Below, one piece after another: positions 13,475 through 61,830 of a stretch of DNA of 64,000 nt. Each line of letters begins with the position of its first letter. Position 1 is the stretch's first letter. The stretch is from a virus. The position numbers and the translations under genes are program-made. The DNA is taken from positions 1-64,000 of the IMG/VR virus record IMGVR_UViG_3300019487_000001; one strand, 5' to 3'. Under the pieces are notes generated by a model, which saw nothing but the letters and a program-made list of their open reading frames with translations, was not told the DNA's origin and ran no database searches.

Positions 13475-14578
13475 TCAAGCCGGTAAAACCAGTTCGTCAA
13501 TGACGGGTGTTCCGTGCCATAGTCTTAGCTGGCCGTGCCATACTGCACCGGGTTCATCTTTTTTTCGCATCAATATATAATTCAACTGACGCCTCGTGCC
13601 AATACTCTCCGTATATAAGGATACTATACTACACCACGTACCGGAGTTAAAGTATTCACCCAGGTCCGGGATCCTCTTATAGCCAGCCTTATGGTTATGC
13701 GCCAGAACTACCAGGCCCTCGCTCTTGGCCTCTATAGCCTCACTCATCTCACGGAGAATCATTTCGGCCCTACCCTCGAGGGTGGACTGTCCTACGCTCT
13801 TTCTGAGAATGGAGTACGTCGGACGAAACTTTGACTTGACCGACATGTTCTTATTGAAGAGAGCGTTGTAGATTACAAACCATGAGATCTTTAAGCCTAG
13901 ACCGGTAAGCCAGATGGGCTTAGAGAAGAGAGTTCGGAAGATCCAGGCAGGTATAGGGCGAACGACATCTAAGTAGGGACAGTCTTGTTTGACGGGATTT
14001 AATAGGTGAGTGATCCAGTAGTATCCCCATGGTGCATCTATAATCTGGGCTGCATTTTCTTCATCCACATGCCAGAGCGATTCACCCTGTTGCCCGTGTT
14101 CTATGTGAAAGTTATCTCCGATGTAGCGAAACTTGTTATACTCAGTATACCGTTCAGGATCTATCTCCAGGAGCTTGGTAAAGAAATACCTATGTGCTTC
14201 TGCGAGAGCGAGACCCATGTCATGGTTGCCCACGATGTAACGGAACTTATGCTTTGGATTCTTAAGCCACTTAGCGATAAACTTGAAAAGTCCCAAGTGG
14301 CCACGATATACTTTGTCGAGCTGGGCAATGACGAAGGCTGCCTCGAGCTTATCAGGGAAGCCACCATCGACTGGGACCTGGAGTAGATCTAGGAAGTCAC
14401 CGTTAGCTACAAACTCAACCTCATCAGCACCAATCTTATCGGCATCATATGTAGTTAGGAGTTCGACGAGTTTGCCGTCTCGAGTGAAGTTCTCTAGAGA
14501 ATTGAGTTGGCCATTCTCGAGATAGACACCCTCCCCGATGTGGGTGTCAGAGATAACAACCTTAAAGCTTTCTCCCAT
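13475..14578 (-). CDS. calcineurin-like metallophosphoesterase
   Basis: Motifs ISDTHIG (DxH), ANGDFLD (GD), GNHDMG (GNHD), and later EHGQ and AHNH histidines. Start overlaps the RT stop by 17 nt. Confidence 0.8.
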   Translation of the reverse strand: MGESFKVVISDTHIGEGVYLENGQLNSLENFTRDGKLVELLTTYDADKIGADEVEFVANGDFLDLLQVPVDGGFPDKLEAAFVIAQLDKVYRGHLGLFKFIAKWLKNPKHKFRYIVGNHDMGLALAEAHRYFFTKLLEIDPERYTEYNKFRYIGDNFHIEHGQQGESLWHVDEENAAQIIDAPWGYYWITHLLNPVKQDCPYLDVVRPIPAWIFRTLFSKPIWLTGLGLKISWFVIYNALFNKNMSVKSKFRPTYSILRKSVGQSTLEGRAEMILREMSEAIEAKSEGLVVLAHNHKAGYKRIPDLGEYFNSGTWCSIVSLYTESIGTRRQLNYILMRKKDEPGAVWHGQLRLWHGTPVIDELVLPA

Positions 14579-15551
14579 AGTCTTTATCCACCAAAGAGTT
14601 ATAGCTCTTAATCAATTTAACATACTGAGCCATATTTATATGTCGAACCCAAGACAACTTCCCTAGGATATGCTCATCGAGATGCTTCCTATCTTTGGCG
14701 AAGTGAAACAGCTGGCCCTCTATGTGCTCACAATACCTCTTAGTGAGAGCGAGAGTCCCATCATTATAGACTATAAACTTATTGGAAATCAGTAAACGAT
14801 TCTCATTACGGACAACAAGCTGAGACTTTTTATAATTAAGTTGCATGTAACCTAGAGTGTTCAGGATCTCTTCGACATGCTCCAGGATGTTTACAAAGAA
14901 TTCTTTGGCATGGATTCTATCTCCACGACCAGAGAAAAGGATGTCATCTGCGTACCGTGTATATGAATTACTTTTGATCGAGCTTAGTGGACCGGTCCTA
15001 TTCATCATTAGGGCTTGGCCTAGGTGTTGCATCGCCGTATCAAAGCTTTTTAATACAAGGTTAGACAAGAGCGGTGAACTGGGGGCGCCTTGCGGTAAGC
15101 CGCCTTCAAAGGTACACAGCTCTGCTATGTCACGCAGGAATTTATTGTGGTATCCAGGCGAACGCGGAATGCGGCGGTCGACTTCTTCTTTCAAGTTAAC
15201 TCTGAGTGCCTCTGTTATCAATAGAGGATGACAGGAGGGAAAGAAGTCCTTGATATCAAGGGCTACAACAAAGTCCGCTTTAGCATGGGCTTGGAGATGA
15301 GATTTAAGACCACGCCCGGGAATATAGGCACAGGCACCAGGTGGATACTCAATATATCTACCATTTAGATTGGTAACTATGAACTCTTGAAGTTCACGTA
15401 GAGCTCCCAGCGGTTCACAGATCATGCGCTTCTTGCCATTGGGCTTGGGAATATATCGTATATGATACATCCCACGCTTGTTTGCTATGATATCGGGTAT
15501 GGCAAAGCCCATCGAGTTAGAAAACTCGTAAAACTTAGAGGCATAAAGCAT
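14562..15551 (-). CDS. reverse transcriptase, stand-alone retron/Abi-like
   Basis: RT motifs IPKPNGKKRMICEP, LDIKDFFPS, LPQGAPSSPLLSN, YTRYADDILFSG (YADD codons 14943-14954). 329 aa with no fused domain. Confidence 0.9.
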   Translation of the reverse strand: MLYASKFYEFSNSMGFAIPDIIANKRGMYHIRYIPKPNGKKRMICEPLGALRELQEFIVTNLNGRYIEYPPGACAYIPGRGLKSHLQAHAKADFVVALDIKDFFPSCHPLLITEALRVNLKEEVDRRIPRSPGYHNKFLRDIAELCTFEGGLPQGAPSSPLLSNLVLKSFDTAMQHLGQALMMNRTGPLSSIKSNSYTRYADDILFSGRGDRIHAKEFFVNILEHVEEILNTLGYMQLNYKKSQLVVRNENRLLISNKFIVYNDGTLALTKRYCEHIEGQLFHFAKDRKHLDEHILGKLSWVRHINMAQYVKLIKSYNSLVDKDYGRKL

Positions 15552-15569: not shown

Positions 15570-15815
15570 TTACTTAGCGGGTCGAGGGGAAGGCTTCTGA
15601 GAGCGCTGAACGTTCTTGGCTTGGGGCTTTGTGTTACCATTAACGGTGGCCTCAACCAATTCGAATTCAACTTCCTCGTTCATCTTCAGAGTCTTGAACT
15701 CATTCTCTTCACTTTGAATCTCGGCGAAGTGGACAAAAATATCAGCTTCCACTCCCTCAGCTAGAATAAATCCAAAACCCTTCTTCGCATCAAACCATTT
15801 AACTTTACCCTTCAT
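15570..15815 (-). CDS. cold-shock domain protein (CspA family)
   Basis: [16 protein letters not shown] (RNP1-like) and DIFVHF (RNP2-like). Ends 18 nt upstream of the RT start. Confidence 0.9.
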
Positions 15816-24037: not shown

Positions 24038-24468
24038 CTGATTAGCTCCTCGCTGCGCTCGGAGCTGGTCTGGCTATCTCCCTTTTCGACTCTATAAGAG
24101 TCTTCCGGGAAATCTTGAGTGGAGAATTCTATAAACGTACACCCGTTGTCAGTGGTTCCCGTGAACCGATGAGGATTCATTGGTGGTAACACTAGGACCT
24201 GACCGATGGTCATATGAATGATTTGTTTTTCTGCATTGGTAGGATTAATGAGCTCGACATCCATCTCGCCATCAATCACGGTAAATGTTTCGTGCTTCAG
24301 GCGGTGCATGTGCATTGAACAGGATTTGCCTTTTTCGACATGGAGAATCTTACCGCAGTAAAGATCTGAATTGCAGAGCCACCTTTCCCACCCCCATCCT
24401 TTGCGTTCCATATGAACAGCATCGGAAACAATATGGGTAGGTCTAGCTGAGTCAACAAGTCTAGTCAT
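24034..24468 (-). CDS. cupin-fold protein, phosphomannose-isomerase-type
   Basis: KGWGWERW..YCGKILHVEKGKSCSMHMHRLKHETFTVIDGEMDV resembles the type II PMI cupin core (WG.E..K.L.V..G..LS.Q.H..R.E.W.V..G). Confidence 0.55.
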   Translation of the reverse strand: MTRLVDSARPTHIVSDAVHMERKGWGWERWLCNSDLYCGKILHVEKGKSCSMHMHRLKHETFTVIDGEMDVELINPTNAEKQIIHMTIGQVLVLPPMNPHRFTGTTDNGCTFIEFSTQDFPEDSYRVEKGDSQTSSERSEELIR

Positions 24469-30408: not shown

Positions 30409-31764
30409 TTAAGTCTTTTTATACCGTCCTCGTATAAACCCTCTAAAATAATCTATTTGATTGTTCTTAGGATCTTCAAGAGCGAGCCCTAGGCAATCAC
30501 TAAGAATCTTCTTAAATTTAGGACCAGGCTTAAATCCCATCTTAACAAGATCTTCGCCGGAGATAGCAAGATCCTTGACTGTCATTGGCACCGAAGTTTT
30601 CTCAAATTGAATGAGTTTACGAAGCAAGCACTTCATTGGCCATGTTATGGCAGGCTTACCTTCTTTAGCTCGGTTGCCTTTGCGATCAGCCATGCGCAGC
30701 CTTAACAAGTCTCTAGTGTGGGGTGCCACAGTTACGGCCCATCGTTTTATAGTTGAGTCTTTCGTGTCTTCGGCAAAGCGCCACATGTGGTGGCGAACTA
30801 GCAAGACAACCTGAGCAGTCCAATCACCGGGAAACTTTAACCGAGTCATAATAGCGTCGGCCTTGTTAGCTCCGACGACTTCGTGTTTGTGAAAACTCGC
30901 GTAACCCCTGACAACTCTTTTAGTGTCAGGTTTGCCTATATCGTGAAAAAGCGCAGCAAACCGGAGGATTGTTCTTTTCGGTGAAACCGCGTCAACAACT
31001 TTAAGTATGTGTGTGTAAACATCGTCTTTGTGGTACTTGTTTTGCTCAACGCCGTGACACTGCTGGAGTTCAGGGATGATGAACGGCAAAAGACCCGTGT
31101 TACGCATGGCGTTAAAAGCTTTGGACGGGAGAGGATACTTCATGGCCTTAACGAGCTCGCCCTGGATCCTCTCGGCAGAGAGCCCATCAATATCCCAGGC
31201 ATTCTCTTTGATAGCTCTAAAGAGATCCTGGGAGATAATCATCCCGGTGCCATAGGCAGCAAACCTACAGGCTCTCAGCATACGGAGCCGGTCTTCTCTT
31301 AAACGCTCTTCTGGATCGCCTACAGCCCTCAGGCTGCGTTGCTTGAGATCAGCTTGACCTCCGAACGGGTCTATGAGGTTTCCGTTCAAATCTAGGGCCA
31401 TAGCGTTAATAGTGAAGTCACGCCTGGCTAGGTCGGTTTCAAGATCGCTAGTGAATTCCACCTCTGCGTGACGCCCGTCACAACTAACATCCTTACGGAA
31501 CGTAGTGATTTGACACGAGAATTTGGACGGCTCATGGAAAACAGAGATGGTTCCATGCTTAATGCCTAGAGGAATTACCTTATAGGTACCCTCAAACAAT
31601 GTGGTGAGAAGCTCCGGTGTCGCTGGAGTAGAGAGGTCCCAATCCATGGGTACCTGCCCCGCGACCAAGTCGCGGACTGCGCCTCCTACGATGTAGGATT
31701 TCACACCACGCTTATCAAGAAAGACCATGAGGTCTTTCAATACAGTCGGAACTTTTTCGAGCAT
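30409..31764 (-). CDS. cca: CCA-adding tRNA nucleotidyltransferase with HD domain
   Basis: GGAVRDLVAG, DWDLST, ARRDFTINAMA, HD motif LFHDIGKP. Confidence 0.9.
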   Translation of the reverse strand: MLEKVPTVLKDLMVFLDKRGVKSYIVGGAVRDLVAGQVPMDWDLSTPATPELLTTLFEGTYKVIPLGIKHGTISVFHEPSKFSCQITTFRKDVSCDGRHAEVEFTSDLETDLARRDFTINAMALDLNGNLIDPFGGQADLKQRSLRAVGDPEERLREDRLRMLRACRFAAYGTGMIISQDLFRAIKENAWDIDGLSAERIQGELVKAMKYPLPSKAFNAMRNTGLLPFIIPELQQCHGVEQNKYHKDDVYTHILKVVDAVSPKRTILRFAALFHDIGKPDTKRVVRGYASFHKHEVVGANKADAIMTRLKFPGDWTAQVVLLVRHHMWRFAEDTKDSTIKRWAVTVAPHTRDLLRLRMADRKGNRAKEGKPAITWPMKCLLRKLIQFEKTSVPMTVKDLAISGEDLVKMGFKPGPKFKKILSDCLGLALEDPKNNQIDYFRGFIRGRYKKT

Positions 31765-35157: not shown

Positions 35158-35658
35158 TTATAGGCTGAACCTGTAAAATATAATAGACTCTGTACCTGCC
35201 CAGGTGCCATAACGAGAAACAAGCTCGCTAGAGCATTGTGGGCTTAACTTATTTGCTAGCACATAGAAGTGCAGGTATTCATGTACCAGGGTTTTAAACT
35301 GTGATCTTAACACGTTCTCGTGTCCCGGACCCCAGCTCCAACCGTCTTTAACATAGATACGATTACCTACTTCGTCATAGCAACCGTTAATAGGGTCTAC
35401 GTTGAGCTCATCGCTCTCTTCGACTTTACAAGCCTCAACTAGAGTTTTGGTGGGAAGATACTCCACAATGGGTGGCATAAGATTATAGTTGACGTTACAA
35501 CGCGATTTCCACGGCTCTTTGCCAAGAGCACGGTGAATTACATGCTTTGCTGTTTCACGTGCCTGGAACTCTTTATCAGCCATATTGGCTAGCTGAGTTC
35601 TTACACTTACGCAACTTAAGGTTGCGCATAGAAACATTATTGCGCATAGTTTTTTCAT
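35158..35658 (-). CDS. lipoprotein with HExxH motif (paralog B)
   Basis: Start taken at MKKLCAIMFLCATLSC. Contains LVHEYLHFYVL. Confidence 0.55.
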   Translation of the reverse strand: MKKLCAIMFLCATLSCVSVRTQLANMADKEFQARETAKHVIHRALGKEPWKSRCNVNYNLMPPIVEYLPTKTLVEACKVEESDELNVDPINGCYDEVGNRIYVKDGWSWGPGHENVLRSQFKTLVHEYLHFYVLANKLSPQCSSELVSRYGTWAGTESIIFYRFSL

Positions 35659-37520
35659 AAGATTTTTCCCGTCAATAGATAACTTTTCAAGGCATAGACG
35701 CAAATATCATTTGCCTTGGCCTTATCAGCCTCCCAAGGAAGCTTCGTTCGAGCAACTGCCACATCAGCAGCCTCGAATAATTTCTTAGCCTCATCTTTCA
35801 CTTTTTCAAGTGACCACTTGCCCTGCTTGATCTCTAAGAGTTCAGACGCATCGTTACGCCAGACGTTTAAGACACCGGTTTCTAAGAATTCGATACCCAT
35901 TCTTAGCAAGCGTATGCAGTGTGCCGCGTTCTTGCAATTTCCATGTATTGATACCTTACCGTCTTGTCTGGTAATTAACGTCCCTGTCGGGACCTCGAAG
36001 CACACAACCCTCTGATTCTTGACTTTTCTTTTAATAACGTTAAAACCTTCTCTTTTTCCGCTACGATATGAGGGTTTTTTGTTGTAGCTTCTTATTTTCT
36101 TAAAGTTAATACAGCTGATTGGTTGATCGTTTTTAGATCTATATATTTGATACGTAGTGAGTTTTTTGCCGGTAAAACTAGATGGGCTACTATATGGCCC
36201 ATTGGCCGCAACCGGTATTCCTGCAAGGATCATCACAGACTGTATATCGTCGATTAAATTCTTATTAGTACTATAATATACAAAATGACCTTTTTTATTT
36301 TTTGATCCATCTCCCGATAGAAGGGCTTTCCACAATATTTCTACTTGTCGCGTAGAAAGATTAAAAGCCCATTTAGGTAATCTTTTATTTTTTGATCCAT
36401 GCCCACAATCCTTGTAGATTTGATGCGCAATTGGACCATGCAATATATAGACGGTTTCTTTTTTATATTGGTATTGTTTGATTGGGTAATTGAGCTTATT
36501 GATAATATCCCTAAAATCACCCATTTTTACTTGTGATAATCTAATAGCCTTGCATTTTTTAATGTTGGTTTTTCTGCTACGATAAAATTGTGCAGTGCCT
36601 TCAGAAAGAAAAAGCCCCATCAATGATAGATAATCATCCGATACGCCTTCGAGTTCTTTAGGTCGCTCATTGGGACATCTGCGTATATGATAATGCGATC
36701 TTCTTTGATTTAATATCTCATCAACAGATTTTAATTCCCATTCATTATTAGGAATATATTTATGAGAATAATTGTTCTTAGGATTTCTATGAGCAGTAGA
36801 AACTAAAAGATTATGGTTATGCGTAACGGTGCATTTAGATAAATTGCCTCTTATTGTATACAAATAACCAGAATATTTTTTATCGATTTTGTCGATATAC
36901 TTGCAAAAAATTAAATCACCAGTTTTAATATCCACCGTTGCCAAAGAATCATTTGCATGAATATCGTCAAACTTCTTCCATCCGGAATCTGTTAAAAATT
37001 CTGTATCTTTCAAATAACAATCATAGCCGAACTGCTTCACCAGCTTCTTTCGCTTATCACCCATGTAGCCCTCAAAGGCTAGGTGAGTCATTTTGTGCAT
37101 CTGAGCGTAAGCATAGCCAGTGAATGAGTGATAGAGGGCTTGACTCGAGAATATATCACGATTCTCGATCAGAGCCCGACCAGTAGGAGTGATCTTCTTA
37201 TAAAGCTCCGGCTTTAACCAGAGCATACCAATGACGTTGGGATTGCTCTTGATCAGAAGAGACATGAACTTACGAAGCTCATGGAACTCGTAGTCCCATT
37301 GCTCATGCTGTATATGCTTAGACTTCTCAGCTTCTTTTTCGCTGTGACCGTGGATGCCAATATACTTGGACTCAGGAGCTAGGTAGACTCCCATCATATC
37401 CACATCGTCAATAGAGGTAGGATCCGTAGGCGGAACATACATACCGTGGGCATGTGAGCCACGATAAGCGTATAGGATACACCGATCCAGGTAATCCTGG
37501 ATCTGGGTTTCGATATTCAC
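35655..37520 (-). CDS. RlaP-like (pol-beta superfamily) nucleotidyltransferase interrupted by an intein
   Basis: The N-extein has YRGSHAHGMY..DDVDMMGVY, a GS/DxD nucleotidyltransferase core. The C-extein of 93 aa resumes at CKNAAHCIRLL. Confidence 0.7.
   Translation of the reverse strand: MNIETQIQDYLDRCILYAYRGSHAHGMYVPPTDPTSIDDVDMMGVYLAPESKYIGIHGHSEKEAEKSKHIQHEQWDYEFHELRKFMSLLIKSNPNVIGMLWLKPELYKKITPTGRALIENRDIFSSQALYHSFTGYAYAQMHKMTHLAFEGYMGDKRKKLVKQFGYDCYLKDTEFLTDSGWKKFDDIHANDSLATVDIKTGDLIFCKYIDKIDKKYSGYLYTIRGNLSKCTVTHNHNLLVSTAHRNPKNNYSHKYIPNNEWELKSVDEILNQRRSHYHIRRCPNERPKELEGVSDDYLSLMGLFLSEGTAQFYRSRKTNIKKCKAIRLSQVKMGDFRDIINKLNYPIKQYQYKKETVYILHGPIAHQIYKDCGHGSKNKRLPKWAFNLSTRQVEILWKALLSGDGSKNKKGHFVYYSTNKNLIDDIQSVMILAGIPVAANGPYSSPSSFTGKKLTTYQIYRSKNDQPISCINFKKIRSYNKKPSYRSGKREGFNVIKRKVKNQRVVCFEVPTGTLITRQDGKVSIHGNCKNAAHCIRLLRMGIEFLETGVLNVWRNDASELLEIKQGKWSLEKVKDEAKKLFEAADVAVARTKLPWEADKAKANDICVYALKSYLLTGKIL
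35937..37019 (-). mobile_element. intein with LAGLIDADG homing-endonuclease domain (361 aa)
   Basis: Begins with Cys (CYLKDTEFLTDSGW, block A). LAGLIDADG motifs YLSLMGLFLSEGTA and ILWKALLSGDGSK. Ends ..VSIHGN followed by a +1 Cys. The insert is markedly AT-rich versus the flanks. Confidence 0.75.
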
Positions 37521-44214: not shown

Positions 44215-44371
44215 CTTCGAATACTCCTACCCAGCACATACAGCGGTAGAACCACTTGAAAAGTATCATCGCGAGTATGGACTGCAGGAACCAGGTTACA
44301 AATTTCATACCGGCTATGACATGGTCTAAGCCGAATGTGTCAACTAGGTGCCTAAGATTTATTTGTATCAC
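44141..44371 (-). CDS. hypothetical small protein
   Basis: 76-aa ORF overlapping both neighbours. Weak call. Confidence 0.3.
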   Translation of the reverse strand: MIQINLRHLVDTFGLDHVIAGMKFVTWFLQSILAMILFKWFYRCMCWVGVFEDDIGLLEKNFWKRSNRSSDTERGE

Positions 44372-45014
44372 ACACGTCCTTCAAGAACTTCTCCACACCA
44401 GCACTGGTTAGTGGATCGTCAGCGAGCTGAACGAGTACCTTGAAGGGAGCGGTGAGTGCATCGGCACCGAGCATGACCGCTCCGAGAAAATGGTCTACAG
44501 ACCTAATGCTGGAGGCCAGTATCTCGGAGTCTTTGTAAATCTTATGAGCTCGCACAGCACTTATGATCTGTGCGAGCGTATTCATGCTGTTGCGGCCAAC
44601 ATCATCCAGTCGGCCCATGAATGGGCTTATGTAGGATGCGCCTGATTTAGCGGCCAGGATGGCCTGGCCGGGATTGAAGCACAGCGTTAGATTTGTAAAC
44701 ACACGCTGAGATAATTCAGTGGATACTCTATATCCAGCAATGGTGCAGGGGAGCTTAATAACCAGACGGTTATGAGGATTGTTTACCATGCCAAGAACAT
44801 TATGCGCTTCACGCATAAAGTCTGAGTAGGTAGGACCGAGTAGCTGGAATGACACAGGGCCGTAGGATACTGCCATGATGTCATGCAATCGGTTTATTCT
44901 TGAATGGAAATCACCAGTAAGACTGGTGGGATTAGTGGTGACACCATCGACGAAGCCAAGAGCGAATGCTCTCTCTACTTCCCTAGGGTCACCTGAATCT
45001 ACAAATATCTTCAT
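44352..45014 (-). CDS. tal: transaldolase / fructose-6-phosphate aldolase family (TalC/FsaA type)
   Basis: MKIFVDSGD..GFVDGVTTNPTS. Schiff-base Lys context LVIKLP. ISPFMGRLDD. Confidence 0.9.
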   Translation of the reverse strand: MKIFVDSGDPREVERAFALGFVDGVTTNPTSLTGDFHSRINRLHDIMAVSYGPVSFQLLGPTYSDFMREAHNVLGMVNNPHNRLVIKLPCTIAGYRVSTELSQRVFTNLTLCFNPGQAILAAKSGASYISPFMGRLDDVGRNSMNTLAQIISAVRAHKIYKDSEILASSIRSVDHFLGAVMLGADALTAPFKVLVQLADDPLTSAGVEKFLKDVCDTNKS

Positions 45015-48647: not shown

Positions 48648-48868
48648 AAGAATTCCTTTGGAATCTTATTTCCATATACTTAGAATATGGCGACCGCACC
48701 AGTGCGCGACTCTGGATCTTTCCCTATTCAGGGAACGATTGCTTTCTCTATACGGTCTTTAATATATATATTCACTAATCCACTAATGTATATAGATCAC
48801 TGCGTTCATAAAATACGCACGATCCCTACCTCTTTTAGATCTTTTCTTCGTAAAGTTTCTCCTTCGAG

Positions 48869-51530: not shown

Positions 51531-52013
51531 CTATCCTTGCCCCTCACTGCGTTCGGAGCAGGGCGTTCGGAGTATTTCTCCAGAGAATAATTCTATAACG
51601 CTGTCAGCGTTCTTTTCTGTTAAACCTATACGAGATTCGGTTTTAACTAGACGGGATATAAGATCACCCATGTCACTGTCGTCATCTAGGATAACGAACT
51701 CAGTGACTTCAGGATGTTCATTGAGCCATACACATATCTCTGCACCCCTTGTACTTGAGTATTGCAAGTCTGGAGTGACATCGATCATGCTTGTAGCATA
51801 ACTGAATCCCTCGTTCTCAAAGTGATCCTGTAACCAGCCCAGAGATTTACCTATTCTCCAAGTACTGGAGATAACAATCTTTAGGTCTGGCACATAACGA
51901 AAGATTCTATTGAGCTGAGTGACAGGTCCACGCGCAAATGTATTGATGTTGCCAGGGGTGATGTTCTAACCCGTCCAAAGGACGCCGTCTATATCTAGGA
52001 AGATGACTTTCAT
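51531..52013 (-). pseudogene. HAD-like phosphatase gene interrupted by one in-frame TAG
   Basis: The ATG at 52013 gives MKVIFLDIDGVLWTG, then TAG (51966-51968). The same frame continues NITPG..VPDLKIVISSTWR.. into track ORF 51531..51893. The catalytic DxDG motif lies upstream of the stop. Confidence 0.6.
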
Positions 52014-55503: not shown

Positions 55504-55537
55504 AAAAAAAGGGCCGGTAGCGTGATGCTACCGGCCC
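55504..55537 (-). terminator. intrinsic terminator after ssb
   Basis: 11-bp stem gggccggtagc/gctaccggccc. A 7-nt A-run on the plus strand gives a U-run on the minus strand. Confidence 0.75.
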
Positions 55538-55562
55538 CGACTATATACTCTCTTAGAGTGAA

Positions 55563-55982
55563 CTACTCTTGAGAGGCAGCCAAGGATTTAGCCTTCAGCG
55601 TGAAACGCGCTTCCGGATCCTTAGCAAGGCTCTGAATCTCACGAGCCACGATCTCAGTCCGGTACCCTTTGGTACCTTCCTTCGTATCGAACTCACGAGT
55701 CTTCAGTTTGCCGATCACGCGGATGAACGCGCCCTTGGCGAGTTTCTCCGTGATCTGTTCGGCAAGGCCTTCCCAAGCGGTAATGCGGTGCCACTCGGGT
55801 TCGGTCTCAACTTCCTTGCCTTCGACTGTGAAACGCTCACGCGTACACAGGCTGAAGGTAGCAAGTTTCTTACCCGATTCAGGGAATTCCCTGACTTCGG
55901 GCGCACCGCCGATATTACCCACTAACTCAACATGATTGTTGGTGCGGGCATAGTGCGCTTGTTTGTCTGTCTGTTCACTCAT
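55563..55982 (-). CDS. ssb: OB-fold single-stranded DNA-binding protein
   Basis: NHVELVGNIGGAPEVR, WHRITAWEGLAE, IRVIGKLKTREF. It lacks the usual acidic DDDIPF tip. Confidence 0.85.
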   Translation of the reverse strand: MSEQTDKQAHYARTNNHVELVGNIGGAPEVREFPESGKKLATFSLCTRERFTVEGKEVETEPEWHRITAWEGLAEQITEKLAKGAFIRVIGKLKTREFDTKEGTKGYRTEIVAREIQSLAKDPEARFTLKAKSLAASQE

Positions 55983-56674: not shown

Positions 56675-56866
56675 TTAGATCTTGGGCATGATCAACTTGG
56701 CGAGTTTCACTCGACCGTTGAGAATGCCTGTTTGAATCTTGGTCTTACCAGTTGCCAGGGCTGGACGCGATACGTTGTATAGCGATACAGCCTTAGTCTT
56801 GGTGGCCTGCATAGCAGACACCAATGACGGGACAACACGATTCTTGATCTGATTGAATTTATCCAT
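56675..56866 (-). CDS. hypothetical protein
   Basis: 63-aa ORF. Confidence 0.45.
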   Translation of the reverse strand: MDKFNQIKNRVVPSLVSAMQATKTKAVSLYNVSRPALATGKTKIQTGILNGRVKLAKLIMPKI

Positions 56867-56947
56867 GATACTTCTCCTTTATGAGTTAAGTTAATAACTC
56901 GGGTTTTAGGCGAGCCGCCCGGAACGGGCGGCGAGCCTCTATTGTTA

Positions 56948-57265
56948 CTAGAACAAATCTTCCTCATCTTCATCGAACTCTGCATCATCACCTGTCTCTG
57001 CAACAGGGGCAGGTGACTCGAGTTCAATAGTTGTGAAGAAATCGTCATCGTACTCACTATCTTCGTCTTCATCTTCAGGCTCCTGGTCAGGACCAGGAGG
57101 AAGTTCAGACAGATGTTGTTCGTACTCAGGAATCCGATATAACCCAGTTGTATCGGATTCAACGATCTCTCCTGCTTCGAGCATCATCTTGATGATGTCT
57201 TCGCGGGGATAGTTGGCCGACAGGCCACGTTCTTCAGCGAATGCCTTGATAAGTTCTTCAATCAT
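56948..57265 (-). CDS. strongly acidic hypothetical protein
   Basis: 105-aa ORF ending EFDEDEEDLF. Confidence 0.5.
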   Translation of the reverse strand: MIEELIKAFAEERGLSANYPREDIIKMMLEAGEIVESDTTGLYRIPEYEQHLSELPPGPDQEPEDEDEDSEYDDDFFTTIELESPAPVAETGDDAEFDEDEEDLF

Positions 57266-57417
57266 AATAACCTCCTAGTAAAAGTTAAATAAGTATTATT
57301 GACTTTAAGCCACACCTGGAAGCACGAAGTGCTGAACCTAGTGTAGCAAGTATCCACCCGCAGGGTGGGGAGGCGGAGGAAACTCCTCCGCCTCTGACTT
57401 CTCTTATTGTACCCGAC

Positions 57418-57690
57418 TTATCTGTTGACTCGTCGATTGTGTCTCTCAATCGACTTATGAACAGGAGTGAAGATCTTTAATCTGGTCTGTAGGACCATAT
57501 CCGAGACCTTGTAGTCATTGGCTTTGGCTATGAAGATCACGAGGCGATCTTCTGACAAAGCCATCATATCCGAGATGTGTAGCCCGACGTTCCGGAGGAA
57601 TGACTGGGCTTCTTGGATTTGGTCGGGGTGAATGATCTTATGAGCCACGACCGTGTACTGAGACTTCTTGTTTTGCATTAAATGAACCAT
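57418..57690 (-). CDS. hypothetical protein
   Basis: 90-aa ORF preceded by GGAGGA. Confidence 0.5.
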   Translation of the reverse strand: MVHLMQNKKSQYTVVAHKIIHPDQIQEAQSFLRNVGLHISDMMALSEDRLVIFIAKANDYKVSDMVLQTRLKIFTPVHKSIERHNRRVNR

Positions 57691-57699
57691 GGTTAGGTC

Positions 57700-58880
57700 C
57701 TCCTTGTTTTGCTACTCACGAAATTGTGAGGAGCGTTGTGAATAGATAGATACTAGAAACACAAGCGGTCAAAAGGGATGACAAATATGTGGCAGAGCTT
57801 GCTGGCGAAGGGGTCTTCTTGTATAGCGTAGCGAAACAAGAAGACAGCCGTGATCCGGCGGAGACACAGTATCCGCCGGAGCGAAGGCGGTCCCGAGCCA
57901 ATGCAAGTGAATGCCAAGCGGGGCTGCACCTCCTAGCGAAGCGTTGAGGTGCAGCCGAGAGCGCATATTTGGCATAGAGAGCGAGGAAATTCAAATGCGC
58001 AGCATTTAATTTCTGAGCGAATGACCTTTTGCTTAGCGCGTCACCTTGAGAACAACGCGACGAGCAGGTAGCAAAAGAAGTGAGGACTATCACATGGTCT
58101 AGGTAAACCAGCGACCACGTGAGTCTCAGCCATGGGACTTAAGAAATCCATGAGTCTTGCATTACAGGGATAATGCAAGACCGTAGGGCACGAGAGCCTG
58201 TAGGCGTCCCCGTAAGTCAGGCGCAGCCTAACTGAAGGCCCCGGAACAAAGTGCAGGGGTTGTGAGCGATGAGACAATCGCGAGCAAGGCGAGAGTAGCG
58301 CGTTAGCAGGGAGATCGACCGAGCCGTGTGTCAACCCCAGAGCAACGCAGTGGCGTTGGTTGGGGTCCAACGAATAGAAGGATCTATTCTTGCACACGGC
58401 GAATTGATCGACTTGCTAAAAGCGATACGATGCCCGGGTTTCTCAGTTAGAGCGAACGCAGTGAGCTTGTACCTAGTAGGTAGGGAGTGAGCGACAAATG
58501 GCGAGCGCCGCAAGGCCCGAGCCAGCCCGTTGCCGAAGGCAAAAGGGCCTTTAGTTTGTAGCCGAATGCACGGGTGGAGTGTTGACCAAGCAAGCGCACA
58601 CCATGGCGTAAACGCAGTGGCACGCGCAGCGACTCAACGACGGAACCGGTGCAGAGGCAGTGCTCACGAATAGGCCGCTTAGGACAAGCGACCGCAGTGA
58701 GAGCGCAGCGTAACGCTGCGGGAGTAGGACAGTTTGGTATTAGTGTCTATAAGCGAGGCTGGAAGAGCAAGCGGAGCGGCTCGTTCCAGCCAGCGCAGAC
58801 CCTGAATGTAAGCAAAGAGTCTTAGGGCTTGGGTGAGTAACAAAGCGCAGCTTTGTACGAACCTCAAGCCAGGTCGGCGA
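57700..58880. other. hairpin-dense, GC/purine-skewed non-coding block A
   Basis: Perfect stems at 57813-57845 (10 bp), 57854-57880 (9), 57922-57956 (11), 58154-58181 (11), 58334-58366 (6+5), 58372-58389 (7), 58530-58542, 58704-58720 (7), 58757-58791 (8+4), 58841-58855. The plus strand is T-poor. The only ORFs are Ser/Arg/Ala/Cys-rich artefacts. Confidence 0.6.
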
Positions 58881-58883
58881 GGA

Positions 58884-59153
58884 CTATTGTCCTCTCCTCC
58901 GTTGTAACTCTCTGGCTATAGCCAAACAGATAGCGATGTTATCAGTACACTCAGGTGAGTCACTATGGTCTTTGACCAAGGTACCAAGACCATCAACAAG
59001 GCGTCTAAAGAGCGCCTTGGTAGGGAACAGTGACGCAGCGAGTCCGAATACATCAAGTCCACCCACCACCCCAGCCGGGGCGGGCGTGGACTGGCCATCC
59101 ATATCCGAATCTTCAAACACACTAGTAGATATAACAGTAGTATTCTCTTTCAT
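58884..59153 (-). CDS. hypothetical protein
   Basis: Start taken at MKENTTV (ATG 59153). Ordinary composition, unlike the flanking blocks. Confidence 0.45.
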   Translation of the reverse strand: MKENTTVISTSVFEDSDMDGQSTPAPAGVVGGLDVFGLAASLFPTKALFRRLVDGLGTLVKDHSDSPECTDNIAICLAIARELQRRRGQ

Positions 59154-59305
59154 AAGTATAGTAACTCCATAGTAAGAGAGGATACTCAAGTACCCTCAGG
59201 TTTTAGAACCCAATGTCACCCTATGTGACACTAGGTTTATAAAGAAAATACATTAATTTTGACTGAAATCGAGTCAGAAGAGTACGCATAGCGTACGTTC
59301 ATAAG

Positions 59306-59345
59306 AAAAACCCAATGTAACCATGGTGTTACAAGGGTTTTTCTT
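59306..59345. terminator. bidirectional intrinsic terminator
   Basis: aaaaaccc-aa-tgtaac-catggt-gttaca-a-gggttttt. A-run on one side and T-run on the other. Confidence 0.55.
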
Positions 59346-59349
59346 TAGT

Positions 59350-60100
59350 AGTACTGGTGTCAACGAGACACATACACCTGGTCCGCCAACTTCTAAGCCC
59401 CCGGTTTAGACCCTACACCTACCTCAACGGACAATTCCATTGTCTCTATGTGGGTAGGGGTATAAGAGGGTCTAACAAACCACCCCACGCGGCGGGGCAG
59501 GGTAACGAGGTAGCACAGGGGGGTATGTTTCACATGGCAATCTGTAGATGACATGTGAAAGGTGAAACGAATCGTGGAGAGCGAAGCTCGAACGAGTCGT
59601 GAACCCCAGCGCAGCCGAAGGCAAGCGCAGCATACAGCACCCCCGCAGGGGGTGTATCCCCTAAGTGCGTACATAACCCAGTACGCCGCAGGGACTAGAA
59701 GGGCGAAGGCATGGTTTTGCCTGGCAAAACTAATGCCTGAGCCCAGGTAAGGTACTACGTGGAACGTAGTACATGGAGAGCATGAACGTAGTGAATGCAT
59801 ATAGTGAGCCCAGAGGGCGAACAAGGCGAAGGCATGACTTTTGCGTAAGCAAAAGGCATGACTGAGCCCATGTAGCACTCGTAGGGTGCGGAATGATGAG
59901 GCGAGCGCCGTAGGCGCGAGCCATAGAGATGAGCCCATAGGGCGAATCAATGTATATAGAGCTGCAACAGTACCACTAGAGCGAGGGAACGTAGTGACCG
60001 AGCGTATGCTACGCTATGTACTACATCCCCTCGCTTCAAGTACTATGCAGCGAGCCCCGAAGGGGCGAGCGGGGGTGGTGTTGTGTACTACATACACACC
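59350..60100. other. hairpin-dense non-coding block B
   Basis: Stems at 59531-59557, 59579-59589, 59638-59654 (7 bp), 59667-59686, 59752-59772 (9), 59838-59855 (7, GTAA loop), 59905-59917, 59980-60035 (8+5+6 nested), 60054-60066. TGAGCCCA occurs at 59738, 59805, 59863 and 59930. Confidence 0.6.
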
Positions 60101-60261
60101 TACTCACCCTTGGATAGCAGTATACACATCTCTATCTTATCCTTCTCTTCAAGAAGGTCCATCATCATGCCTACATGAGATGGTGATAGAGGTGTAACAG
60201 CTGTACGTAACACATCTAATTGACTAATGATATCAGTATAGTGATCTTGCAATGTAAACAT
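60100..60261 (-). CDS. 53-aa hypothetical peptide, first ORF of the leftward arm
   Basis: The ATG at 60261 follows AGGAG. Reads MFTLQDHYTDIISQLDVLRTAV.. Confidence 0.4.
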   Translation of the reverse strand: MFTLQDHYTDIISQLDVLRTAVTPLSPSHVGMMMDLLEEKDKIEMCILLSKGE

Positions 60262-60760
60262 AACAATCTCCTAAGTAATGCACTACACCTACCTAGATAC
60301 ACCATGTACCTAGGCGGCGGAGTGCTTGTTAAATATCAAATAACTCAAATAAAAAGATGAATATACCTATCCATCTCGTAGTATAGACCCGGGGGCTTAC
60401 ACGGTAAAACCCTAGGTCTTACTACTCAATCTCACCCTCCAGGAGGTTGTACATGTTTTTCCCCCTCCCTAGGCTTTTTCCCGTATCACCAGTTTCTGCC
60501 CGGAACGCGGGGGGAGGTGATAGCTTTTATATTTTTTCCCCCATTTACAACTCCATATGGAACTTTTCTTCTTCTCCCTTATAGCTGAGTAACTCAGTGG
60601 GTTTTTAAGCTCATCAAGGCAGGGGGCGGGCGTACCCCTAATTCTTCCCTATTAACCTGCCAGAGAGGCGTATAGAAAGCCACAGAGGGTTTTAATGGGT
60701 GTGTAGAGGGGGCGCGTAAATATCTCTTCTAGGATTGTTAATAGGGAGGAAATATTTGTC

Positions 60761-60790
60761 TTGACAAGAAATACCATAGTTAACTAAAAT
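60761..60790 (+). promoter_or_regulatory. sigma70-like promoter
   Basis: TTGACA-18 nt-TAAAAT. No ORF for about 550 nt downstream. Confidence 0.4.
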
Positions 60791-61288
60791 CTCTCTTAGG
60801 AAGTTACACCGAGTTCTTAGGAACTGACAGTCTTTATATTGAGTCTTATAAGAGAATACCGGGATCTTATTCTTTAGCTAGAGTGTAGATCTAGGATAAT
60901 AACCACTAGGGTTTTCATGTAAGTTTTTTATTCCCTCCGCCCTTTGCTAAATTGTTTCCTATGTATAAGTGTTCTTTTTTAGGGTGATTATCTCATATAA
61001 ACTAATCTAAGTGCTCTTTTTAGAGCTTTTATGTGGAGGGACTTTCAACCCATCCCCCGGCCTTTGGTTCGGAAGACTCAGTGAAACTCTGTCTTGGGTG
61101 CAAAGACGTCCAGTGAGTTAAGGTACAATATACTGGACCTTAGCTAGCTTATTGTCCAATATATGATACCTTAAAGCTTCGGGGTTTAGTGTTTACAGTT
61201 CACAGTTAACTGTAAACTTTGGTGTAAACTTTTGCCGTTAAGTGGCTTATTGGAAAGAGTATTTTCCTTTACATGGCGACAAAGGGTC

Positions 61289-61317
61289 TTGTGTTTTTGT
61301 AGGGTGTGTTCTATAAT
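61289..61317 (+). promoter_or_regulatory. sigma70-like promoter of the rightward operon
   Basis: TTGTGT-17 nt-TATAAT, 25 nt upstream of the AGGAGG-ATG at 61342. Confidence 0.5.
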
Positions 61318-61341
61318 GCGAAGAAAAGCTCTAGGAGGTTT

Positions 61342-61830
61342 ATGAGCGACTATGTTCAAATTCTAGACATCCCGTATTTCCAGAAGAGGTACAAGCTTCT
61401 CATGTTTAGTGGGGAGTATGACCCCATGGTGGGGGAGGCTAGGATAGCCTGTGACTATGGGGAAGAAGGATCCGGAAACCCGGATGAGATGGTGTTCTCA
61501 ATACAAGTCGTAAATGATCAGGAGCCCCCTTTGAAAGACAAAGAGAAGGAGCCCTACTTCATTATTGTTCCTAGGCAGTCCTATATGCCCCCGGCGGCGC
61601 AGAAGGAGCTTACGGATGTTACCTATGAGATTGAGGAGCTCTTTCGGGGATTGAATAATGATTCGAATACGAAAGACTGGATGAGTGGAAAGTATGGTGC
61701 ACGTCTTAAGAATATCGGATGGGTACCAGTAGAGTTTAGTAGGATCTTTGAAGTCCATCATGAAGAGTTGGACTTTAAGTCCGTGGGACAGTTGGAACTT
61801 GGCAAGGGGAGATTCGGTAGTCTACTTTAG
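61342..61830 (+). CDS. hypothetical protein with C-terminal RFxxL motif
   Basis: Start taken at the ATG after AGGAGG (the track starts at GTG 61306). Ends ..LGKGRFGSLL. Confidence 0.6.
   Translation: MSDYVQILDIPYFQKRYKLLMFSGEYDPMVGEARIACDYGEEGSGNPDEMVFSIQVVNDQEPPLKDKEKEPYFIIVPRQSYMPPAAQKELTDVTYEIEELFRGLNNDSNTKDWMSGKYGARLKNIGWVPVEFSRIFEVHHEELDFKSVGQLELGKGRFGSLL

Follow-up and report, generated by a model that had tools for sequence, protein, structure and literature searches.

Two non-coding hairpin clusters in the early region of an IMG/VR phage: a probable REP/BIME-like array of a strand-specific GA/GNA module

Short DNA hairpins with a function on one strand are found at the promoters of phages N4 and LUZ7, at G4 oric and at ssiA of RSF1010, all of which are short stems capped by C(GNA)G that work in SSB-coated or supercoiled DNA (SSB, single-stranded DNA-binding protein). 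C(GNA)G loops with sheared G·A pairs are the defining features of mini-hairpin DNA, and d(GCGNAGC) has a melting temperature of 76.5 C, is nuclease-resistant and is bound poorly by SSB (PMC13037366). Natural examples of mini-hairpin DNA are G4 oric, RSF1010 ssiA (CCGAAGG) and the promoters of the N4 virion polymerase (GCGGAGC) (PMC13037366). In LUZ7, the early promoters are hairpins, some of them in tandem, and the middle promoters are GC-rich hairpins used with a single-stranded DNA (ssDNA)-binding cofactor (PMC9163698). The ssoA origins, with their RSB and CS-6 elements, are long orientation-dependent hairpins that are active in single-stranded form and carry TAGCGT (CS-6) in the apical loop (PMC4598088, PMC5703833). 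In this study, two hairpin-rich blocks of the IMG/VR virus record IMGVR_UViG_3300019487_000001, from a singleton double-stranded DNA phage of ~195 kb, were compared with these systems. Positions 1 to 64,000 of the record were analyzed (hereafter the window, to which all coordinates refer). Block A (57700-58880), block B (59350-60100) and the single hairpins at 56.9-57.4 kb are very probably non-coding clusters of one strand-specific hairpin module that form a REP/BIME-like array.

Block A occupies the gap between two minus-strand open reading frames (ORFs), 57418-57690 and 58884-59153. An earlier note on this DNA had described it as lacking credible coding sequence, as GC-rich and T-poor on the plus strand and as explained by none of the annotated genes, and our results agreed in all three respects. 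The codon-usage scores of the ORFs inside block A were all negative, ranging from -0.05 to -0.17 bits/codon. Those of the flanking ORFs, which have good ribosome-binding sites, were +0.11 and +0.13 bits/codon, respectively, which is typical for this genome. Given that all of its internal ORFs scored negatively, block A is non-coding. Similarly, no ORF with the codon bias of the genome was found in block B, where all scores were also negative. The plus strand of block A is rich in G and A, with a GC content of 54.6% and 18% T, and the remaining window is ~45% GC.

About 21 local hairpins were identified in block A. They include the four perfect stems of 10, 9, 11, and 11 bp that had been reported before, of which the first and the third enclose the 13-nt loops aTAGCGtAGCGaa and cTAGCGaAGCGtt, respectively. 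The further stems that had been named were also found, at 58334-58366, 58372-58389, 58530-58542, 58704-58720, 58757-58791, and 58840-58856. The hairpins of block A are listed below.

57813-57845, plus strand: perfect 10-bp hairpin, with a GC-gta-GC mini-hairpin and the CS-6-like hexamer TAGCGT in its 13-nt loop aTAGCGtAGCGaa
57854-57880, plus strand: perfect 9-bp hairpin, TCCGGCGGA ... TCCGCCGGA
57922-57956, plus strand: perfect 11-bp hairpin; its 13-nt loop cTAGCGaAGCGtt contains a GCGAAGC mini-hairpin
57983-58016, plus strand: compound module GA-GGAAATT-c-AAATGC-gca-GCATTT-AATTTCT-GA, with a C(GCA)G triloop, one G·T wobble and GA...GA flanks
58154-58181, plus strand: perfect 11-bp hairpin; its 5' arm GTCTTGCATTA is similar to 57670-57680, the start of the neighbouring gene
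58264-58283, plus strand: module GA-GCGAT-gagaca-ATCGC-GA
58334-58366, plus strand: hairpin ACCCCA-gag-CAACGC-agtg-GCGTTG-gt-TGGGGT, which includes ACGCAGT
58372-58389: stem named in the earlier note
58450-58466, plus strand: canonical module GAGC-GA-AC-gca-GT-GA-GC, a match to the widespread 15-mer GCGAACGNAGTGAGC
58500-58542, plus strand: GGCGAGCGCC-gcaa-GGCCCGAGCC, followed by TTGCC-gaa-GGCAA with a C(GAA)G triloop
58687-58720, plus strand: module variant AGCGACCGCAGTGAG, followed by the 7-bp hairpin CGCAGCG-taa-CGCTGCG
58757-58791, plus strand: hairpin GGCTGGAAGAGC ... GCTCGTTCCAGCC with an inner GC-gga-GC
58840-58856, plus strand: ACAAAGC-gca-GCTTTGT, a 7-bp stem with a C(GCA)G triloop

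The excess of stems also held against matched controls. Block A has four perfect stems of at least 9 bp, with 21 such stems in the entire window; the mean of 1000 dinucleotide-preserving shuffles of block A was 0.04, and none of the shuffles reached four. The core AGCG was found 29 times on the plus strand and twice on the minus strand of block A (shuffle mean 14). The longer motif (T/G)AGCGA occurred eight times on the plus strand and never on the minus strand (shuffle mean 1.8). The restriction of (T/G)AGCGA to the plus strand had been stated before and was borne out, but the number given for it, about two dozen, fits only the AGCG core. When blocks A and B were folded in chunks of ~400 nt, the energies of the plus strand summed to -800.9 kcal/mol, as compared with -618 ± 10 kcal/mol for shuffles (z -17.9). 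The minus strand gave a z of -11.4. TRF reported nothing in the blocks, and their direct-repeat families are short and irregularly spaced. A CRISPR array or a tandem repeat was ruled out, as regularly spaced direct repeats were absent.

The module consists of an outer helix, a tandem G·A/A·G, a short inner helix and a 3-nt G-N-A loop closed by C-G. Its canonical form is GAGC-GA-AC-GNA-GT-GA-GC, which corresponds to a 15-19-mer, (GA)GC-GA-AC-GNA-GT-GA-GC(GA). Many stems are bracketed by GA...GA, which gives rise to tandem G·A/A·G juxtapositions. Of the 42 predicted hairpin loops in blocks A and B, 24 were triloops, while shuffles had 5.0 ± 2.2. The feature also exceeds the bounds drawn in the earlier note, as it comprises block B and isolated hairpins of the same kind outside block A. 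Block B is placed between ORF 58884-59153 and a 53-aa ORF, 60100-60261. It contains a diverged duplication of ~125 nt (59693-59820 and 59816-59946), whose copies differ in their helix sequences and keep the helix-GA-helix-GTA architecture. The isolated hairpins at 56909-56937, 57318-57338, 57354-57368, and 57370-57394 occupy the spacers between the next small minus-strand genes. Block B, the isolated hairpins and the flanking features are as follows.

59350-60100, plus strand: block B, the second non-coding array; 13 of its 17 hairpin loops are triloops
59780-59798, plus strand: GCAT-GA-AC-gta-GT-GA-ATGC, in which the canonical inner module caps a helix of 4 bp
59900-59922, plus strand: GGC-GA-GCGCC-gta-GGCGC-GA-GCC, with a predicted RNA minimum free energy of -14.5 kcal/mol and the fold (((..(((((...)))))..)))
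60050-60070, plus strand: module GC-GA-GCCCC-gaa-GGGGC-GA-GC
56909-56937, plus strand: isolated module GGC-GA-GCCGCCCG-gaa-CGGGCGGC-GA-GCC, on the template strand ~46 nt upstream of the ATG of the minus-strand ORF 56675-56866
57318-57394, plus strand: three template-strand hairpins upstream of the minus-strand ORF 56948-57265, namely GA-AGCAC-gaa-GTGCT-GA, CCACCC-gca-GGGTGG, and an 11-bp stem with an AAA loop
59304-59344, no strand assigned: bidirectional hairpin resembling an intrinsic terminator, with T runs on both strands, between block B and ORF 58884-59153/block A
57418-57690, minus strand: flanking gene of 90 aa with the ribosome-binding site AAGGAGG; its first codons resemble the arms of block A hairpins
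58884-59153, minus strand: small gene of 89 aa between blocks A and B, with a positive codon score

The module is strand-specific. In blocks A and B, 14 G-N-A triloops were found on the plus strand (shuffles 0.4 ± 0.7) vs. 2 on the minus strand. In the whole window, C(GNA)G hairpins with a stem of at least 4 bp numbered 21 on the plus and 5 on the minus strand, and 11 of the 21 lie within 57321-60066. No folding is predicted for the complement of the module, in which the conserved G·A and GNA positions become pyrimidine mismatches (U·C/C·U and UNC loops). Thus, selection acts on the plus-strand form of the module. Elsewhere in the window, the canonical modules GAGCGCAGCGA and GAACGCAGTGA were found on the minus strand, i.e., opposite to the blocks, at 24050-24060, 48797-48807, and 51544-51554, two of them with short complementary flanking helices.

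The earlier note had overlooked that these hairpins represent copies of a repeat module with a wide distribution. A scan of IMG/VR with GCGAACGNAGTGAGC returned at least 120 loci, some of which are expected by chance, as the pattern has 14 specified bases. A first pattern scan with TGAGCCCNNNGGGCGAA had returned mostly chance-level matches and was rejected. Among the IMG/VR matches listed, ~67% of the sites were intergenic, where roughly 10% would be expected in phage DNA, and the loop N was found to be any base. Moreover, several contigs among these matches carried two module copies near each other, and unseeded sister modules GA-GC-GNA-GC-GA occurred at the same loci 50 times vs. 5 times in a control of equal size, a ~10-fold excess. 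A flanking helix of at least 6 bp abutting the 15-mer was detected with a crude scorer at only 6 of 123 viral sites, whereas such a helix is common at the genomic sites described below. In the AT-rich phages L180 and L181 (L numbers are our locus handles), GC-rich GAGCGA islands form arrays of more than 1 kb. In L180 (454-623 and 881-2580), the RNA OTKONC (RF03053) lies ~0.3 kb from such an array.

The module was also found in cultured phages. A BLAST search with the 19-mers gave exact matches in N4-like Schitoviridae, including FSL SP-058, SP-076, Pollock, KpCHEMY26, and others, in which exact 19-20-mers are present. In FSL SP-058 and KpCHEMY26, a 75-nt module cluster is identical at 73 of 75 positions across two genera, and the terminator next to it diverges with compensatory changes. 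The cluster is on the template strand between this intrinsic terminator and the ribosome-binding site of the next gene, and no sigma-70 promoter is visible there. In five Microviridae, the module is intergenic and in the plus orientation of the record, which is the coding strand in the one inspected (L243); the packaged microvirus strand is the coding-sense strand. In Klebsiella SSU5-like phage-plasmids, two modules lie within a long hairpin in a 565-nt spacer beside RNase HI, and in L142 the module flanks an iteron-like array.

A one-genome-per-species scan with 18 specified bases identified at least 120 matches, as compared with ~17-26 expected. Dozens of them were from haloarchaea, in which, among the matches listed, about one third of those inspected were located downstream of a tRNA gene in one or the other orientation, at a distance of 2-60 nt. 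The haloarchaeal modules are often placed between inverted copies of the T-arm or the 3' half of a tRNA. In Methanosarcina (L272), a 67-bp module-bearing unit is present three times. Further genome matches listed were from Nocardia, Streptomyces, Omnitrophota, Planctomycetes, candidate phyla radiation (CPR) bacteria, Clostridia, Bacteroidales, and Treponema. We also observed that module units of ~67-190 nt are repeated next to tRNA genes in haloarchaea (L297 850-1300, L298 4600-5100, and L251 2350-2650) and in Methanosarcina (L272 3850-4010). Each of these units starts with a partial copy of a tRNA 3' end and looks like a miniature insertion or a fold-back product. In L260, L271, L285, L294, L295, and L300, which are from Omnitrophota, CPR, Planctomycetes, and Proteobacteria, the module forms the tip of GTCATTGC-...-GCAATC palindromes. 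We take these palindromes to be the source of the common spurious hypothetical proteins of the 'RFARNDK / CHCEERSDEAIS' type in metagenome annotations. The module also accounts for many of the spurious small ORFs that are called in GC-rich palindromes.

Similar to the REP/BIME (REPIN) palindromes, the hairpins of the window and their copies in IMG/VR and in cellular genomes are short, GC-rich, imperfect, intergenic, multicopy and clustered, occur in both orientations and form single-strand hairpins. The REPs of Pseudomonas also have a GA-helix-GA layout. In all likelihood, the module caps palindromic repeats of phages, archaea, and bacteria that make up a very widespread and uncurated family. 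Therefore, the blocks are best described as a REP/BIME-like array and not as the gene for one large RNA. The module crosses domains and viruses, whereas each REP family is restricted to one species or genus and is associated with RAYT transposases and a GTAG tetranucleotide. No Y1_Tnp family was found among the 113 ORFs of the window, and GTAG is not a constant flank of the module.

Palindromes of this kind might accumulate selfishly or neutrally. The blocks would then be a dump or an expansion zone of REP-like repeats, produced by fold-back or template-switch copying or by an unknown ssDNA transposase, with no function for the phage. The spread of the module across domains in either orientation is consistent with this, as are its clusters and tandem copies (L190, the three 67-bp units of L272 and the duplication of block B). 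Moreover, the stems are unconserved, often perfect and seem to be copied locally, from the T-arms or 3' halves of tRNAs in haloarchaea and from the start of gene 57418-57690 here. No protein family is consistently beside the module, and the 148 ORFs neighbouring the module loci had no shared family and no Y1_Tnp. However, the exact 19-mer in Archaea, Bacteria, and phages and the 73/75 identity amid diverging flanks in two N4-like genera indicate purifying selection on the module sequence. In addition, the window lacks a gene for a Y1/HUH transposase or RAYT, and given the compactness of phage genomes, a phage would pay a high price for 2 kb of junk in its early region. We consider selfish or neutral accumulation somewhat unlikely. 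If the blocks are selfish repeats after all, they are still relevant to assembly breaks, recombination, and gene calling in the early regions of phages.

The arms of the hairpins deserve separate mention. The first codons of ORF 57418-57690 (57662-57680) are matched, in consecutive parts, by the 5' arms of the hairpins at 57813 and 58154, and the 11-mer of this match has no other match in the window at one mismatch or fewer. Local copies resembling CTTCTTGTTTTGCATTA were found at 57662-57680, 57700-57712, 57813-57827, and 58154-58175, so that the start of this ORF is echoed in the arms of two perfect hairpins. Given the arms derived from a gene start here and those derived from tRNAs in haloarchaea, it is suggested that the cap seeds fold-back copying of nearby DNA or that the arms pair for regulation.

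As for the function of the array, the earlier note had listed an origin or hairpin promoters, a large structured RNA, and small RNAs or decoys. The first of these, a structure at the DNA level, fits best, with the module contexts in N4-like phages, microviruses, iterons, and the phage-plasmid spacer. Judging from the chemistry of the motif and its genomic context, we tentatively propose that the module acts as ssDNA, as an SSB-resistant landmark for transcription initiation or priming; that ssDNA is the active form, and which enzyme reads it, are the inferred parts of the proposal. The plus strand would be unwound by supercoil-driven extrusion, by transcription or by replication of the early region next to the SSB gene. 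Its C(GNA)G loops and sheared G·A pairs would then form exceptionally stable DNA mini-hairpins that bind SSB poorly and could persist on SSB-coated DNA as landmarks. Such landmarks might serve as entry signals of the known kinds, for RNA polymerases of the N4 type, at template-strand hairpin promoters, and for primases or RNA polymerase at ssi/sso sites. As the plus strand is the template of the leftward early genes, the array may drive or organize leftward early transcription, plus-strand priming, or both.

The position of the array is consistent with the proposed role as ssDNA. Leftward genes extend to ~60.27 kb, and rightward ones begin at 61.3 kb. The blocks are at the head of the leftward early cluster, and the SSB gene (55563-55982) is 1.7 kb from the blocks. 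Whirly, DprA, CSD, SRAP, and a retron-type reverse transcriptase are also encoded in the window, and the cumulative GC skew reaches its minimum at ~57 kb. Similar to the N4 early promoters, which precede early genes by 20-60 nt on the template strand, the GNA hairpins of the window are on the template strand of leftward early genes. The script that detected the hairpins of the window also recovered the three N4 promoters, each of them a C(GNA)G hairpin of the template strand, with a start codon 21-58 nt further downstream. The 11 C(GNA)G plus-strand hairpins with a stem of at least 4 bp in 57321-60066 match the N4-type pattern of a 4-7 bp hairpin with a GNA loop on the template strand. Three single hairpins (56909-56937, 57318-57338, and 57354-57368) are 46-90 nt upstream of minus-strand start codons, while most hairpins of the blocks are hundreds of nt from any ORF. 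The module itself is also present in N4-like phages in a template-strand arrangement upstream of genes. The tandem G·A 'zipper' of the module, on the other hand, is absent from the N4 promoters. N4 has three and LUZ7 nine such promoters, all of which have conserved bases at their flanks and are used by a virion RNA polymerase, whereas more than 30 hairpins are found here within 2 kb. TAGCGT or TAGCGA is present in apical loops of the window at 57824-57829, 57829-57834, 57934-57939, and 59289-59294, as CS-6 is in ssoA. However, ssoA belongs to rolling-circle plasmids and not to large double-stranded DNA phages.

Several results weigh against the proposed role as ssDNA. Nearest-neighbour DNA parameters predict no folding of the small module, and the stability of its 19-mer, d(GAGCGAACGAAGTGAGCGA), is argued from the published data on mini-hairpins. 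At least 20 hairpins per kb are far above what promoters or priming sites would need. No promoter-like consensus flanks the hairpins of the window, such as ...CCAAAA... of N4, and only GA is common to them. Neither an N4-like virion RNA polymerase nor a T7-like polymerase nor a primase is encoded in the 64-kb window, whose largest ORF has 621 aa. Regarding ssoA, the RSB element (TTATGCCGAGAAAATTT-like) had no match in the window at up to three mismatches, TAGCGW is not enriched, and the likeness is confined to the TAGCGT hexamer in apical loops; in the absence of RSB, membership among the ssoA single-strand origins was rejected. The flip of the motif strand within the window is based on three left-hand copies only. 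Together with the cumulative GC-skew minimum at ~57 kb, these copies give a weak hint that the module might always occupy the template of lagging-strand synthesis, the origin being near 57 kb. Furthermore, no relatives reaching the blocks were found in INPHARED (DNA), IMG/VR, the JGI metagenomes or a collection of 5.8 billion proteins. When the three flanking proteins were searched against that collection, only self-matches or two short Logan contigs ending before the block were found. Searches of the literature with literal motif strings matched only unrelated primers.

Two further results, on the position of the module relative to genes, also fit an element at the 5' end of an RNA. Among the IMG/VR matches listed, a gene was downstream on the strand of the module at 45 of 60 intergenic sites, and in L171, L153, and the microvirus L243 the module directly follows a sigma-70-like -10 box. 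Of these 60 sites, 23 were upstream of divergent genes and 4 lay between convergent genes; at those between co-directional genes, the module was sense in 22 cases and antisense in 11, the latter being confirmed with long flanking genes. This mixed orientation argues against a cis-acting mRNA element. Boxes of the -10 type were weakly enriched 10-20 nt upstream of the module (17 vs. ~7), which is in favour of an RNA, and a fixed distance between promoter and module was rejected on account of this weak excess.

One explanation at the RNA level is that the plus strand encodes one or more non-coding RNAs, which would be transcribed rightward, antisense to the small genes, and function as a sponge or decoy for a protein that binds GA/GNA caps, or as an antisense regulator of early genes. 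In accordance with this, the plus strand folds better than the minus strand (z -17.9 vs. -11.4) and uses G·U pairs, it is purine-rich, as coding strands are elsewhere in the window, and the terminator at 59304-59344 has a T run on it. The sense orientation of the module after promoters in other phages (L171, L243, and L153) and the enrichment of inner-pair G·T variants (2.5-fold vs. 1.4-fold for A·C variants) are also consistent with an RNA, and proteins with RRM and CSD domains are encoded in the window. However, no Rfam family matched, no convincing plus-strand promoter was found upstream of block A, and C-G-closed triloops with sheared G·A are typical of DNA. The core module has only -1.6 to -2.1 kcal/mol as RNA, which is not better than shuffles, and among the IMG/VR matches listed it was antisense in one third of the cases between co-directional genes. 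A plus-strand RNA is thus unlikely. The array of small RNAs or decoys considered in the earlier note may still exist, although the C(GNA)G loops with tandem G·A, the antisense position, and the occurrence in either orientation elsewhere speak against the RNA level.

The large structured RNA that had been suggested, with GOLLD and ROOL as models, was not supported. Similar to GOLLD, ROOL, and CsrB/RsmZ, the blocks extend over a long non-coding region in which hairpins are numerous and a short motif recurs within the loops or close to them. Different from these RNAs, they match no covariance model, have no single conserved architecture, carry a motif of DNA-type chemistry and are antisense to the flanking genes. 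The Rfam scan that had been called for, GOLLD and ROOL included, gave no match at the gathering thresholds in the whole 64-kb window, nor did HEARO, OLE, tmRNA or riboswitches match. At E<=10, three chance-level matches were found in 57000-61500, none of them in block A. The blocks are a string of independent local hairpin modules with no single conserved fold. An E-value scan of six module-bearing loci and one haloarchaeal locus with Rfam also left the module uncovered. Neither tRNA nor tmRNA genes were found in the window. On L217 (5769-6207), a contig that also has the module, GOLLD (RF02032) adjoins a tRNA-like element.

On the opposite strand, the blocks might be leader or intercistronic structures of minus-strand mRNA. 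As long untranslated spacers of the leftward early operon, they would control processing, stability, Rho-dependent polarity or translation, possibly through pairing of upstream arms with codons 4-10 of ORF 57418-57690. The flanking minus-strand genes have good ribosome-binding sites and positive codon scores, the minus strand also folds well beyond shuffles, the arms of the hairpins at 57813 and 58154 match the gene start, and a minus-strand terminator follows the SSB gene (55510-55538), all of which fit such a leader. Yet selection for hairpins in minus-strand RNA would favour Watson-Crick pairs over conserved mismatches, while U·C/C·U mismatches and UNC loops take the place of the conserved features on this strand, and no folding is predicted for the complement. 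The GNA loops are also distributed 14 to 2 in favour of the plus strand. Hence, we regard a minus-strand leader as quite unlikely.

A retron-type reverse transcriptase (RT) is encoded on the minus strand at 14562-15551 (PADLOC RT_III-A, 3.4e-45; Pfam RVT_1), and its gene is preceded by a cold-shock-domain gene at 15570-15815 on the same strand. With such an enzyme, minus-strand RNA across the blocks could be copied into a plus-strand multicopy ssDNA that folds into mini-hairpins. This would account for DNA-type hairpins on the strand opposite to transcription, and many ssDNA-binding proteins are encoded in the window. However, the RT is 43 kb from the blocks, and most other module loci have no RT nearby. 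Retron non-coding RNAs normally abut the RT, and no msr/msd-like non-coding region was seen directly upstream of this one, whose upstream neighbours are protein genes. The blocks were thus rejected as msr/msd, and their use as an RT template is very improbable.

If the module works as ssDNA, the blocks would be an extreme case of a signal known from a few model systems (N4 promoters, G4/RSF1010 priming sites, and sso origins), and such signals would be far commoner in phage genomes than annotation suggests. As the module is easily scanned, a survey of uncultured phages could pinpoint their origins or hairpin promoters. It is conceivable, though we consider it doubtful, that the GA-zipper/GNA-capped hairpin represents an undescribed family of cross-domain ssDNA elements, a universal SSB-proof landmark that is also spread by fold-back copying of its flanks. 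In that case, blocks A and B would be among the largest arrays known, and the array may couple to the ssDNA toolkit of the phage (SSB, Whirly, DprA, and the retron-type RT). An exact 19-mer that Archaea, Bacteria, and viruses have in common is of interest in itself.

The domains encoded in the window include SSB, Whirly, DprA, SRAP, UDG, dUTPase, RNase_T, RRM_1, CSD, and NADAR, along with an RNA-repair set of RlaP, HAD_SAK_2, and cREC_REC. Such a concentration of ssDNA- and RNA-handling domains is unusual. The 621-aa ORF (35655-37520, minus strand) has an N-terminus of the RlaP nucleotidyltransferase type and contains a segment of 33% GC at ~36000-37000 that resembles an intein or homing-endonuclease insertion. 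An enzyme of the CCA-adding/poly(A) polymerase family with an HD domain is encoded at 30409-31764 on the minus strand, although no tRNA gene was found in these 64 kb. The intrinsic terminator after the SSB gene (55511-55537) has the plus-strand arm GCCGGTAGCGTG, which matches the RfaH ops element at 11 of 12 positions, presumably by coincidence. Finally, a transaldolase (phrog_440, 5e-49) is encoded at 44352-45014 on the minus strand; as cyanophages typically carry this auxiliary metabolic gene, it gives a hint of the host group.

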